A stretch of 17,432 nucleotides of DNA from a virus (Duplodnaviria; Heunggongvirae; Uroviricota; Caudoviricetes): the IMG/VR virus record IMGVR_UViG_3300011888_000045, positions 1 to 17,432 of that record. The stretch is one strand, 5' to 3'. The position numbers were made by a program, and so were the translations under genes. Positions 2,577 through 6,110 of the stretch are shown in pieces. Under the pieces are notes generated by a model that saw only the letters and a list, made by a program, of their open reading frames with translations, did no database searches and was not told the DNA's origin. Each line of letters starts with the position of its first letter. Positions within the stretch are counted from its first letter, which is position 1.

Positions 2577-2595
2577 GCTAATGATAATCATTTTC
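2577..2595 (+). promoter_or_regulatory. Fur box upstream of sitA
   Basis: GCTAATGATAATCATTTTC matches the 19-bp Fur consensus GATAATGATAATCATTATC at 17 of 19 positions. Confidence 0.6.
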
Positions 2596-2617
2596 ATTTT
2601 GTATTGCTTATGCTATA

Positions 2618-2639
2618 AAACATAGCCGTTGCTATGTTT
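2618..2639 (+). promoter_or_regulatory. MntR operator (perfect inverted repeat) upstream of sitA
   Basis: AAACATAGC-cgtt-GCTATGTTT is a perfect palindrome matching the MntR box known from mntH and sitA promoters. It lies 33 bp upstream of the sitA ATG. Confidence 0.7.
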
Positions 2640-2671
2640 GTTCTAATTTTGCTCACTATAGGTACTAAATT

Positions 2672-3586
2672 ATGTACTCAATAAAAAAAGTAACCATGCT
2701 CTTGGGGTGCCTCGCCCTCACCTGCTCGATCGCATTTCAGGCGAGTGCAACTGAAAAATTCAAGGTCATTACAACATTTACCATCATCGCAGATATGGCC
2801 AAAAACGTGGCTGGAGATGCTGCAGAAGTCTCATCCATAACCAAGCCCGGTGCAGAAATTCATGAGTATCAGCCTACCCCTGGCGATATTAAACGTGCGC
2901 AGGAGGCACAACTGATTCTCGCCAATGGTATGAATCTGGAATTGTGGTTCCAACGCTTTTACCAGCATCTTAATGGGGTTCCAGAAGTAATTGTCTCTTC
3001 GGGTGTGACGCCAGTAGGGATCACTGAAGGCCCCTATGAGGGCAAACCTAACCCCCATGCCTGGATGTCGCCAGATAATGCTCTGATTTACGTCGATAAT
3101 ATTCGTGATGCGTTGATAAAATACGATCCGGCAAATGCACAAACCTACCAACGTAATGCCGATACTTATAAAGCCAAGATTACCCAAACCCTTGCCCCCC
3201 TGCGTAAGCAGATTGCTGAACTCCCTGAGAATCAGCGATGGATGGTCACCAGTGAAGGGGCTTTTTCTTATCTCGCACGCGATTTGGGGCTAAAAGAGCT
3301 TTATCTGTGGCCGATTAATGCCGATCAACAAGGCACGCCGCAGCAGGTACGTAAGGTTGTTGATATGGTGAAGAAAAATCATATCCCGGCAGTCTTTAGC
3401 GAGAGTACGATTTCCGATAAACCAGCGCGTCAGGTTGCGCGTGAAACCGGCGCGCACTACGGCGGTGTACTCTATGTCGATTCCCTGAGCACAGAAAACG
3501 GCCCGGTACCTACGTATATCGACCTTCTGAAGGTTACTACCAGTACGCTGGTACAGGGAATTAAAGCCGGGAAAAGGGAGAAATAA
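2672..3586 (+). CDS. sitA: Mn2+/Fe2+ ABC transporter periplasmic substrate-binding protein (SitA/YfeA family), 304 aa
   Basis: Signal peptide, then [21 protein letters not shown]...[15 protein letters not shown]...NPHAWMSP...[14 protein letters not shown]...[21 protein letters not shown], closely resembling Yersinia YfeA as I recall it. Stop overlaps the sitB start (TAATG). Confidence 0.9.
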
Positions 3587-4402
3587 TGATGCAATCTGCG
3601 GGCATTGTCGTTAATGATGTTACTGTCACCTGGCGTAACGGGCACACAGCACTGCGCGATGCATCCTTCACAGTACCAAGTGGATCTATTGCCGCTCTGG
3701 TTGGGGTAAACGGTTCCGGAAAATCGACGTTGTTTAAAGCGATTATGGGATTTGTGCGTCTGACCAGCGGAAAGATATCTGTTCTGGGTATTCCCACGCG
3801 ACAGGCGCTACAGAAAAACCTGGTTGCCTACGTCCCTCAGTCAGAAGAGGTTGACTGGTCATTTCCTGTACTAGTGGAAGATGTGGTAATGATGGGCCGC
3901 TATGGGCACATGGGTATGTTGCGTATAGCCAAAAAGAGGGATCGTCAGATTGTCACCGATGCGCTGGAACGTGTCGATATGGTGGATTTTCGCCATCGAC
4001 AAATCGGCGAGCTTTCCGGTGGACAAAAGAAACGCGTCTTTCTGGCGAGAGCGATTGCACAGCAGGGTGATGTGATCCTGCTGGATGAACCTTTTACCGG
4101 CGTTGATGTGAAAACCGAAGCGAAAATCATCAGCCTGTTGAGGGAGTTACGCGCGGAAGGCAAGACGATGCTTGTCTCAACGCACAATCTCGGCTCAGTC
4201 ACGACATTNNNNNNNNNNCAAAGGCACCGTCCTGGCAAGCGGGCCGACAGACACCACTTTTACAGCCGAGAACCTGGAGCTGGCTTTTAGCGGCGTACTG
4301 CGCCATGTCACACTTAACGCCTCGGAAGAAAGCATTATTACTGACGATGAACACCCTTTTGTGGCACATCGACCGTCAGCGTTGCAGAGGGAAGCAAGAT
4401 GA
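3586..4402 (+). CDS. sitB: Mn2+/Fe2+ ABC transporter ATP-binding protein (SitB/YfeB family); reading frame interrupted by the N run at 4209-4218
   Basis: Walker [13 protein letters not shown] signature LSGGQKKR, Walker B ILLDEP; AGGGAG SD upstream. Upstream of the Ns the protein is in frame 1 (3586..4208); downstream it continues in frame 2 ([30 protein letters not shown]...) to the stop at 4400-4402, which overlaps the sitC ATG. Confidence 0.82.
4209..4218. other. Run of 10 N (gap or masked bases) inside sitB
   Basis: Literal nnnnnnnnnn in the sequence; the flanking coding frames differ, so the true length is not 10. Confidence 0.95.
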
Positions 4403-5256
4403 ACGTGCTACTGGAACCCTTCAGCTATGAATATATGCTCAATGCGATGTGGGTCTCGGCGATGGTCGGCGGTCTCTGCGCTTTCCTGTCATGCTATCTG
4501 ATGCTAAAAGGCTGGTCGCTGATTGGCGATGCGCTGTCGCACTCTATTGTCCCGGGTGTTGCGGGGGCATATATGCTGGGGCTTCCGTTTTCTCTGGGAG
4601 CCTTCTTTTCCGGCGGACTGGCAGCGGGCAGCATGCTGTTTCTTAACCAACGCACTCGCTTAAAAGAAGATGCCATCATCGGCCTGATCTTCTCCTCCTT
4701 TTTTGGCCTGGGGCTGTTTATGGTGTCATTGAACCCGACATCCGTGAACATTCAGACCATCGTCCTAGGCAATATTCTGGCAATCGATCCGGCGGATATC
4801 CTGCAACTCACTATCATTGGCATTCTCTCGATCATCGTGCTTTTTTTCAAATGGAAAGATCTTATGGTGACCTTTTTCGACGAGAATCACGCCCGTGCTA
4901 TTGGATTGCATCCGGGCAGATTAAAAATCCTCTTCTTCACCCTGCTGTCGGTTTCGACCGTTGCGGCGCTGCAAACGGTTGGTGCCTTTCTGGTGATCTG
5001 TCTGGTGGTGACTCCCGGTGCAACAGCATGGTTGTTAACCGATCGTTTTCCCCGCCTGCTCATAATTGCTGTAACTATTGGCAGTGTAACCAGTTTCCTC
5101 GGCGCGTGGGTCAGTTACTTTCTGGACGGCGCGACAGGTGGAATCATCGTGGTGGCGCAGACACTGCTGTTTCTTTTAGCATTTGTATTTGCGCCCACCC
5201 ATGGGCTTTTGGCAAATCGTCGGCGTGCGCATAAAGCGCTGGAGGATCGCTCATGA
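4399..5256 (+). CDS. sitC: Mn2+/Fe2+ ABC transporter permease (SitC/YfeC family), 285 aa
   Basis: Polytopic membrane protein with ATGA start/stop overlaps to both sitB and sitD, placed in the canonical sitABCD order. Confidence 0.88.
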   Translation: MNVLLEPFSYEYMLNAMWVSAMVGGLCAFLSCYLMLKGWSLIGDALSHSIVPGVAGAYMLGLPFSLGAFFSGGLAAGSMLFLNQRTRLKEDAIIGLIFSSFFGLGLFMVSLNPTSVNIQTIVLGNILAIDPADILQLTIIGILSIIVLFFKWKDLMVTFFDENHARAIGLHPGRLKILFFTLLSVSTVAALQTVGAFLVICLVVTPGATAWLLTDRFPRLLIIAVTIGSVTSFLGAWVSYFLDGATGGIIVVAQTLLFLLAFVFAPTHGLLANRRRAHKALEDRS

Positions 5257-6110
5257 TGGCATTATTACTGGAGCCACTGCAGTTCACCTTTATGAGTCAC
5301 GCACTGCTGATTTCACTGGTAGTTTCCATACCCTGTGCGCTGCTGTCGGTCTTTCTGGTCCTGAAAGGTTGGGCACTGATGGGTGACGCGATGAGTCATG
5401 CGGTTTTTCCTGGCATCGTGCTTGCCTGGATTCTGGGGTTACCTCTGGCTACAGGGGCATTTATCGCCGGAGTATTCTGCGCGGTGGCGACGGGATACCT
5501 GAAAGACAACAGCCGAATCAAGCAAGATACAGTGATGGGGATTGTTTTTTCTGGCATGTTTGCCGCAGGTCTGATCTTGTATATTGCAGTCAAACCAGAC
5601 ATACATCTTGACCATATTCTTTTCGGCGACATGCTCGGGGTAACCATCGGCGATATAATCCAGACGATGATTATTGCCGGGCTGGTTACACTTGTTATTA
5701 GCGTAAAATGGCGGGATTTTTTGCTGTTCAGCTTTGATTATCAACAGGCGCAGGTAAGCGGTTTGCATACGCGATGGCTGCATTATGGGCTGCTGTGCAT
5801 GGTTTCCCTGACCATTGTGGCGACGCTGAAAGCAGTAGGTATCATTCTCTCCATTTCTCTGCTCATTGCGCCTGGCGCCATTGCGGTACTCCTGACACAA
5901 CGCTTTCATATTGCACTCCTACTGGCGACTGGCATATCGGTAATAGTCTCAATGACTGGTGTTTGGCTGTCCTTTTTTATCGACAGCGCACCAGCTCCGA
6001 CGATTGTCGTCTTATTCGCGGTTGTGTTCATCATGACGTTTACCGTTATCAGTTTCAACGCACGCACAAAGGGAAACGCTCATAGACAGGATCTGTTATC
6101 CCCCAATTAG
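5253..6110 (+). CDS. sitD: Mn2+/Fe2+ ABC transporter permease (SitD/YfeD family), 285 aa
   Basis: Paralogous to sitC (shared LKGW-LMGDA-SH motif near the N-terminus); ATGA overlap with sitC. Confidence 0.88.
   Translation: MMALLLEPLQFTFMSHALLISLVVSIPCALLSVFLVLKGWALMGDAMSHAVFPGIVLAWILGLPLATGAFIAGVFCAVATGYLKDNSRIKQDTVMGIVFSGMFAAGLILYIAVKPDIHLDHILFGDMLGVTIGDIIQTMIIAGLVTLVISVKWRDFLLFSFDYQQAQVSGLHTRWLHYGLLCMVSLTIVATLKAVGIILSISLLIAPGAIAVLLTQRFHIALLLATGISVIVSMTGVWLSFFIDSAPAPTIVVLFAVVFIMTFTVISFNARTKGNAHRQDLLSPN

Follow-up and report, generated by a model that had tools for sequence, protein, structure and literature searches.

Downstream of the attachment (att) junction in phage-derived DNA from IMG/VR virus record IMGVR_UViG_3300011888_000045 (Caudoviricetes), a sitABCD transporter operon is found. 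Positions 1 to 17,432 of this record were analysed here (the window, 17,432 nt), and the locus raises the question of whether the operon is phage cargo that brought its own metal-responsive control, an island that merely abuts a prophage, or a decaying remnant. SitABCD is involved in manganese and iron acquisition and in oxidative-stress resistance in the host for Escherichia coli, Shigella and Salmonella, and carriage by temperate phages explains the patchy yet very wide distribution of sitABCD. An original prediction, made from the letters of the window, described a complete four-gene operon of the SitABCD/YfeABCD type that is carried as a phage moron under dual control of Fur and MntR.

Several elements of this picture have been described before. 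sitABCD, described as the commonest lambda moron, was encountered on 70% of the temperate Lambda coliphages from infant E. coli, where it was counted as a moron and was preceded by a Fur box in every case (Mathieu et al. 2020, PMC6969025), and a listing of the cargo of a prophage of enteroaggregative E. coli (EAEC) 042 places it at the tail end (PMC2808357). In a lysogen of phage Perceval, sitA-D transcripts were 4-13-fold over the prophage background (Misson et al. 2023, PMC9928086). Moreover, passages of two reviews that cite Ikeda 2005 and Runyen-Janecky 2006 (PMC3852070, PMC8264917) describe mntH and sitABCD as repressed by MntR-Mn and as subject to Fur as well, and report dual repression by Fe-Fur and Mn-MntR for the sit operons of Salmonella and Shigella.

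The analysis described here indicates that the locus is very likely the known sitABCD cassette, a self-contained moron of approximately 3.65 kb that occupies the non-essential 'b region' of a Rac-type prophage and is preceded by its own candidate Fur/MntR promoter. As phage cargo with such a promoter the cassette is already known in all respects claimed here, and the window adds one instance, in which sit and a gene for a DgcX-like cyclase are stacked in a Rac-type prophage at ttcA. Worth recording are the apparent 'frameshift' in sitB, which is an assembly gap, and the second, frameshifted DgcX-like moron beside sit.

The sitABCD genes and the transporter family

The gene map was drawn up from a six-frame list of open reading frames (ORFs) and from comparison with annotated E. 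coli genomes, and it places the sit genes as follows:

2672-3586, + strand: sitA, periplasmic Mn/Fe-binding protein, 304 amino acids
3586-4402, + strand: sitB, ATPase, stop codon at 4400-4402, frame interrupted by a 10-N gap at 4209-4218
4399-5256, + strand: sitC, permease, 285 amino acids
5253-6110, + strand: sitD, permease, 285 amino acids

The operon thus begins with the gene for the binding protein, followed by those for the ATPase and the two permeases, and neighbouring genes overlap or abut. The predicted completeness held for sitA, sitC and sitD, which are intact ORFs, but not for sitB as it is read in the window, where the N run splits the gene into the listed ORFs 3586-4290 and 4172-4402. 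The shift of frame is apparent, because 10 N stand in for 21 bp that are present in relatives as the in-frame sequence TTGCGATTATACGGTCATGGT. When translated separately, the two pieces are identical to the reference SitB at 207/207 and 60/61 positions (267 of the 268 readable residues), and the gap hides residues 208-215 only (FCDYTVMV in the reference); Walker A, the LSGG signature, Walker B and the H-loop are all present. A real sitB frameshift was rejected as the default, as the break coincides exactly with the N run and the flanking pieces are 99-100% identical to intact SitB. By this comparison sitB is very probably intact and the four-gene operon complete.

The reference SitB allele passes the NCBIfam equivalog model NF011630, 'manganese/iron ABC transporter ATP-binding protein', with 590 bits at a cutoff of 393. 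For SitA, SitC and SitD the NCBIfam scan returned no model above its cutoff; the zinc models AztC/AztB reached 185-200 bits, below their cutoffs, and the ZnuA/ZnuB models approximately 70 bits. Since no model passed, the family call for these three proteins was based on matches to PDB sequences, the names of exact-sequence clusters and the RefSeq annotation of near-identical loci. Among all PDB sequences, SitA matches Yersinia pestis YfeA with 419 bits, cyanobacterial MntC with 353 bits and a Salmonella SitA fragment with 289 bits, whereas E. coli ZnuA obtains 51 bits. His64, His129, Glu195 and Asp270 of SitA align with His76, His141, Glu207 and Asp282 of YfeA, which we take to be the site-1 metal ligands of the YfeA structure papers. 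In addition, the SitA, SitC and SitD sequences have exact matches that are named SitA/C/D in E. coli and Shigella, in at least 1000 contigs each, and SitA is identical to that of E. coli PapRG-06-3 at 304/304 and to that of phage 21 at 298/304 positions.

These sequence comparisons assign the transporter to the SitABCD/YfeABCD-type Mn/Fe ATP-binding cassette (ABC) importers with a binding protein of the cluster A-I family, and not to ZnuABC, in line with what had been predicted. SitABCD of Shigella flexneri and Salmonella Typhimurium and YfeABCD of Yersinia pestis share the same four-gene architecture and family, and transport of Mn2+ and Fe2+ is known from the literature for the homologues of avian pathogenic E. 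coli (APEC), Shigella and Salmonella.

Operators and candidate promoter

The sequence upstream of sitA contains the following elements:

2577-2595, + strand: Fur box GCTAATGATAATCATTTTC, 17/19 matches to the 19-bp consensus
2591-2619, + strand: candidate sigma-70 promoter, read by eye, with -35 TTTTCA at 2591-2596 and an extended -10 TGCTATAAA at 2611-2619
2618-2639, + strand: MntR operator palindrome AAACATAGC-CGTT-GCTATGTTT, 18/18 matches, 0 mismatches

Both operators were recovered as predicted. Within 17.4 kb the Fur box is the sole site with at most 3 mismatches, against an expectation of 0 from 200 shuffles, and the perfect MntR palindrome has a chance expectation of 0.01. The same pair of sites is found at mntH of E. 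coli K-12, of which the operator AAACATAGCAAAGGCTATGTTT consists of the half-sites AAACATAGC/GCTATGTTT around a 4-bp spacer, with arms identical to those of the sit palindrome, and which has a 15/19 Fur box just upstream; the spacing between the starts of the Fur and MntR sites is 34 bp at mntH versus 41 bp at sit. The mntH gene encodes an NRAMP-type transporter, in contrast to the ABC importer encoded by sit, and its promoter is, according to the title of Patzer and Hantke (2001), the classical example of dual Fur/MntR repression.

In a comparison of five cassette copies, both operators were unchanged in phage 21 and in the prophage of UM146, whereas the OV24 copy has one change in an MntR arm and the copy on an APEC plasmid has two changes in the Fur box and one in a palindrome arm. 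A contig scan with SitA had its best match in Phytobacter (87%), with no E. coli or Shigella locus among the matches, and the orthologues used for operator footprinting included those of Phytobacter, Shimwellia, Erwinia, Atlantibacter, Citrobacter, Enterobacter and Salmonella arizonae. These Enterobacterales orthologues are usually preceded by a Fur-like box with 13-16/19 matches, located near -92 to -105, and by an ATAGC-N4-GCTAT palindrome with 13-18/18 matches, located near -41 to -82, while shuffled upstream regions gave mean best scores of 11.1 (Fur) and 10.4 (MntR) and scores of at least 14 in 1.6% and 0.2% of cases, respectively. In S. arizonae both sites lie at distances similar to those in the window. 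Salmonella SitA is approximately 75% identical to SitA of the window, and the Salmonella operon resides, as indicated by titles in the literature, on Salmonella pathogenicity island 1 (SPI-1) and not on a prophage; Yersinia lacks MntR and relies on Fur alone, according to a review. Because the operators are conserved across the cassette copies and the Enterobacterales orthologues, the cassette is taken to have kept an ancestral promoter design rather than to have gained host wiring on the phage. The match to the host mntH pair and the conservation across copies are consistent with the dual Fur/MntR wiring that had been predicted.

The hexamers of the candidate promoter are separated by a 17-bp spacer, with 14 bp up to the TGC of the extended -10, and all its bases are invariant in the five copies. 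Its position appears plausible, with the Fur box overlapping the -35 and the MntR box overlapping the -10/+1. The MntR palindrome was itself flagged as terminator-like in the promoter/terminator scan, which was treated as a by-product of the scan criteria. The same scan found no clear terminator after sitD, and Rfam searches revealed no riboswitch or small RNA in the sit leader or in the spacer between sitD and the cyclase gene.

Prophage boundary

Upstream of the operators, the window contains the boundary between host and phage DNA:

2264-2317, + strand: ttcC-type stub, the orphaned first 17 codons of ttcA, which holds the attR core
2313-2465, no strand assigned: phage P arm of attR

By alignment, the 26-bp attR core (2287-2312) has an identical counterpart at attL, adjacent to intR, in PapRG-06-3 and K-12, and the junction between host and phage DNA is at 2312/2313. 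In genomes with an empty site uspF is followed by an intact ttcA, and the match of the window to these genomes stops at 2312; in K-12, ttcC is annotated at the place equivalent to the stub. The P arm is common to the Rac prophage of K-12, whose homology reaches 2465, stops and starts again in tfaR, and BL21 matches up to approximately 2472. Within the P arm, repeated TTTGCCCC(A/T)TTTTTGCC motifs, shared with K-12 Rac, are located at 2417-2435 and 2447-2465, with a further TTTTTGCCCC motif at approximately 2405. These repeats resemble the annotated arm sites YYTTCCCCAAAA of phage 21 and are probably integrase arm-type sites of the Rac attP.

The sit operon begins 360 bp inside the attR junction, and 150 bp of P arm plus the attR core separate the cassette from host DNA. 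The closest complete genome, that of E. coli PapRG-06-3, is 99.3% identical over 1-8739 and 96.7% identical over 8895-17357 and has exactly the gene order of the window; its element of approximately 57 kb extends to intR-xisR-ttcA and includes terminase, capsid, tail and lysis genes. Because the att boundary, the Rac homology and the comparison with PapRG-06-3 place the operon inside the prophage, it is assigned to the equivalent of the lambda 'b region' of a Rac-type lambdoid prophage that is integrated in the 5' end of ttcA. The predicted position between the att junction and the tail-fibre genes was confirmed, with attR core and tfaR as landmarks, but a second cargo gene, encoding a cyclase, had been overlooked. 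The sit genes are convergent with the tail genes (7987-17432, - strand), which agrees with the claimed orientation opposite to the late genes, and the moron arrangement is borne out by the location inside the att boundary and by the same slot and orientation in phage 21.

K-12 Rac has the same integration site (ttcA, with the ttcC stub beside uspF), P arm and tfaR/stfR/lom, and carries ynaM-ynaE-pinR (1.8 kb) where the window has sitABCD and the cyclase gene (5.5 kb); it is a cryptic, heavily deleted prophage.

At attR, the ttcA promoter and first 17 codons remain (2150-2317, + strand) and are directed at the P arm and sit. The promoter/terminator scan found no terminator-like site on the + strand between the ttcC stub and the sit promoter, and read-through from the ttcA promoter into sit is possible.

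Distribution and mobility of the cassette

Sequence homology between the different contexts of the cassette starts at approximately 2459-2537, and ends at approximately 6117 on plasmids and at approximately 6310-6322 in chromosomal prophage copies. Because of where this homology starts and ends, the mobile unit appears to consist of the promoter and the four genes, together approximately 3.65 kb. A repeat search found no convincing direct or inverted repeats flanking the cassette. The occurrence of the cassette, in complete E. coli genomes unless stated otherwise, was as follows:

Genomes matching any part of the sit region: 3562 of 5426
Genomes with at least 80% of the sit region: 2336
Chromosomal sit places: 3314
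Plasmid sit places: 1063
Genomes with a ttcA-att/sit junction of this kind: 502
Genomes with the full uspF-sit-cyclase-tfa arrangement: 43
Phage records with at least 80% of the cassette: 27

The query against the phage records consisted of window positions 2466-6110 and hence ended at sitD. The matching records, among which phage 21, the Lambda_ev series and the LF82 phage Perceval, are 96.6-96.8% identical over 2489-6110, and the cassette proteins of these Lambda-like coliphages are identical to those of the window at 275-298 of 285-304 residues. The gene order of phage 21 runs from J and the side tail fibre through two small genes to sitDCBA, and on through three small genes to icd', attP, int and xis, so that sit lies, as in the window, between tail fibres and attP and is opposed to the late genes. 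In UM146 and OV24 the cassette lies between an icd fragment and the tail-fibre genes, and in all 3 of the 3 chromosomal contexts inspected it is situated between an att remnant and tail-fibre genes. On the APEC plasmid, which is of the ColV type, it is flanked by IS1 on one side and a Tn3 remnant on the other, with the aerobactin genes nearby. Phage 21 and the UM146 and OV24 prophages integrate at icd, in contrast to the prophage of the window, which has a different, Rac-type backbone, is integrated at ttcA and, unlike the Lambda-like coliphages, has a dgcX-like gene added between sitD and tfa.

The occurrence of the cassette within the sequenced genomes of phage 21, Lambda_ev and Perceval implies its packaging by virions for these phages. 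The highest-ranking match in the phage database, 'Salmonella phage SPF_0923' (ON032529.1), was rejected as evidence of packaging: it includes the host genes nifJ, ompN and uspF next to sit and the tail genes and is a prophage prediction with chromosomal flanks, apparently of the E. coli type. The uspF-att-sit-tfa order of this record lacks the cyclase gene, and in K-12 Rac and SPF_0923 the slot has different or less cargo.

The original prediction had proposed to check whether the operon co-occurs with this prophage. No such tie emerged: the sit operon is common to lambdoid phages with different integrases and to plasmids and is not specific to this prophage, and Rac-type prophages without sit are found in K-12 and BL21.

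Assembly state of the window

The window has two runs of 10 N, at 4209-4218 and at 6147-6156, and consists of at least three contigs joined by scaffolding. The second run has the same 7 bp, AGTACAC, on either side and would be a spacer joining overlapping contig ends, as is typical of scaffolding. The junction of att, sitA and the first part of sitB sits within one real contig. The complete uspF-to-tfaR order was seen in 43 complete genomes, despite the scaffolded join in the window.

The two spacers set apart a contig of 1.9 kb (4219-6146) that contains the remainder of sitB, sitC and sitD, and the second break lies within 30 bp of the point at which plasmid copies of sit lose homology (approximately 6117). 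Speculatively, the breaks might stem from the collapse in assembly of a second copy of sit in the source genome, such as one carried by a ColV plasmid; some genomes carry up to 5 sit places.

Evaluation of alternative explanations

Four points weigh against the interpretation of the locus as a complete, self-contained moron under Fur/MntR control. The piece containing the remainder of sitB, sitC and sitD (4219-6146) is tied to its neighbours by scaffolding; sitB cannot be read across the 10-N gap, so that function in this genome is presumptive; the scan called no promoter in 2560-2671, where it missed the candidate promoter because the -10 hexamer ends in A; and repression by Fur and MntR at this locus is a prediction from its operators.

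An alternative is that sit represents an independent genomic island that abuts the prophage and is moved by homologous recombination or by the activity of insertion sequences (IS). A passage in a review (PMC7545054), referring to Fisher et al. 2009, describes such a pathogenicity island, 'PAI sit', as unstable, with four insertion-site clusters that are rearranged by homologous recombination. The ColV-type plasmids, with the same cassette between IS1 and Tn3 remnants, fit this view, as do cassette edges that are sharp (approximately 2459-2489 and 6117) whatever the context. An island would have to be reconciled, however, with the attR core and P arm that stand between cassette and host DNA, with the phage 21, Lambda_ev and Perceval genomes that hold the cassette between tail fibres and attP, and with the recurrence of this setting in every chromosomal context inspected, and it is considered improbable as a separate explanation; to a large extent it describes the same thing as carriage by a phage. 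Decay of the operon into a non-functional state, with a truly disrupted sitB in a cryptic prophage, is still less probable. The frame of sitB is indeed broken in the window as given, the adjoining dgcX-like gene has a 1-bp deletion, and the Rac prophage of K-12, which occupies this site as well, is a cryptic remnant. The break in sitB nevertheless falls exactly on an N run, the other N run has the duplicated contig ends of scaffolding, the pieces of sitB match intact SitB with all ATPase motifs, and the other three Sit proteins are intact and match widespread alleles exactly.

Assignment to a different family of cluster A-I ABC transporters, such as ZnuABC-type zinc uptake, with operators that are chance matches, is effectively refuted: the lack of a SitA, SitC or SitD model over its NCBIfam cutoff and the sub-cutoff AztC/AztB scores would leave room for it, but the ZnuA/ZnuB models score far lower than these, the PDB comparison favours YfeA over ZnuA by 419 to 51 bits, SitA has the His-His-Glu-Asp site, and the operators are conserved with chance expectations of 0 and 0.01. 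A further, combined proposal, for which the odds appear slim, is that the b-region slot is an exchange point for stacked cassettes and that sit expression has an additional layer that depends on the state of the prophage. The slot may hold two independently mobile cassettes with sharp, reusable edges (sit at approximately 2459-6117 and dgcX at approximately 6247-7980). Beyond Fur and MntR, the prophage state may act by read-through from ttcA via the P arm, which is considered since no terminator was found between the stub and sit, or by binding of Int, Xis and IHF to the P arm 110-260 bp upstream.

Proposed regulation and function

For a sitABCD moron with a Fur/MntR promoter of its own, the steps of regulation and function can be proposed on the basis of what is well established for Fur, MntR and the cluster A-I ABC importers. 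The cassette would have brought its own promoter. When Fe2+ is sufficient, Fe2+-Fur would bind the box that overlaps the -35 and occlude it, and when Mn2+ is sufficient, Mn2+-MntR would bind the palindrome that overlaps the -10/+1 and occlude that region. Because of these overlaps, a lysogen would be expected to express the transporter only under scarcity of both iron and manganese, independently of the opposing phage late operon. Upon metal limitation SitA would be made in the periplasm, SitCD as the membrane channel and SitB as the ATPase, and the resulting import of Mn2+ and Fe2+ would help growth and peroxide resistance.

A second cargo gene encoding a DgcX-like diguanylate cyclase

Between sitD and tfaR, the window contains one further cargo gene, with a G+C content of 27%:

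6583-7913, + strand: gene for a DgcX-like membrane diguanylate cyclase, GGDEF domain with 162 bits, 443 amino acids in relatives

A 1-bp deletion in the T-run at 6731-6736 leads to a stop after approximately residue 51, and the frame is open again from 6747 (388 amino acids). In other genomes the dgcX-tfa block is also found in the absence of sit. The protein has an RKED I-site five residues ahead of GGEEF. DgcX has been reported to 'hitchhike' on lambdoid prophages and to lie beside uspF-ompN in strain SE11 (Richter et al. 2014, PMC4287979), and the gene in the window fits that published description, the comparison being one of description only.

An inverted repeat of 16 bp, with 94% complementarity and a loop of 5 nt, was observed at 7941-7977, where the cyclase gene and tfaR converge with their stops on either side; it could be a bidirectional terminator that separates the cargo from the late operon.

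Host flank and late genes

The remaining features of the window comprise the host genes ahead of the prophage and the phage late genes:

34-154, - strand: micC, small RNA MicC (Rfam RF00121), upstream of ompN as in K-12
379-1512, + strand: ompN, in the order found in E. coli K-12 and PapRG-06-3
1653-2087, + strand: uspF, the final host gene ahead of the prophage, NCBIfam UspF equivalog with 303 bits
7987-8571, - strand: tfaR-type tail-fibre assembly gene, the first phage late gene
8571-11930, - strand: stfR, late tail gene, annotated after the PapRG-06-3 locus, 97-99% identical
11989-12588, - strand: lom, late tail gene, from the ORF list and the PapRG-06-3 annotation
12655-16053, - strand: J, late tail gene, from the same two sources
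16114-16761, - strand: I, late tail gene, from the same two sources
16659-17432, - strand: K, late tail gene, from the same two sources, reaching the end of the window

Within the tfaR coding region, the Rfam family IS009 (RF02111) gave a match of 227 bits at 8030-8228 (- strand). Finally, a related complete Rac-type prophage (NZ_CP048604.1, 817598-823848) has non-phage cargo in its early region, encoding an MFS transporter, a gamma-glutamylcyclotransferase, a LysR regulator, a DUF2254 protein and a BCCT transporter, and it also has trkG adjoining the lysis genes.

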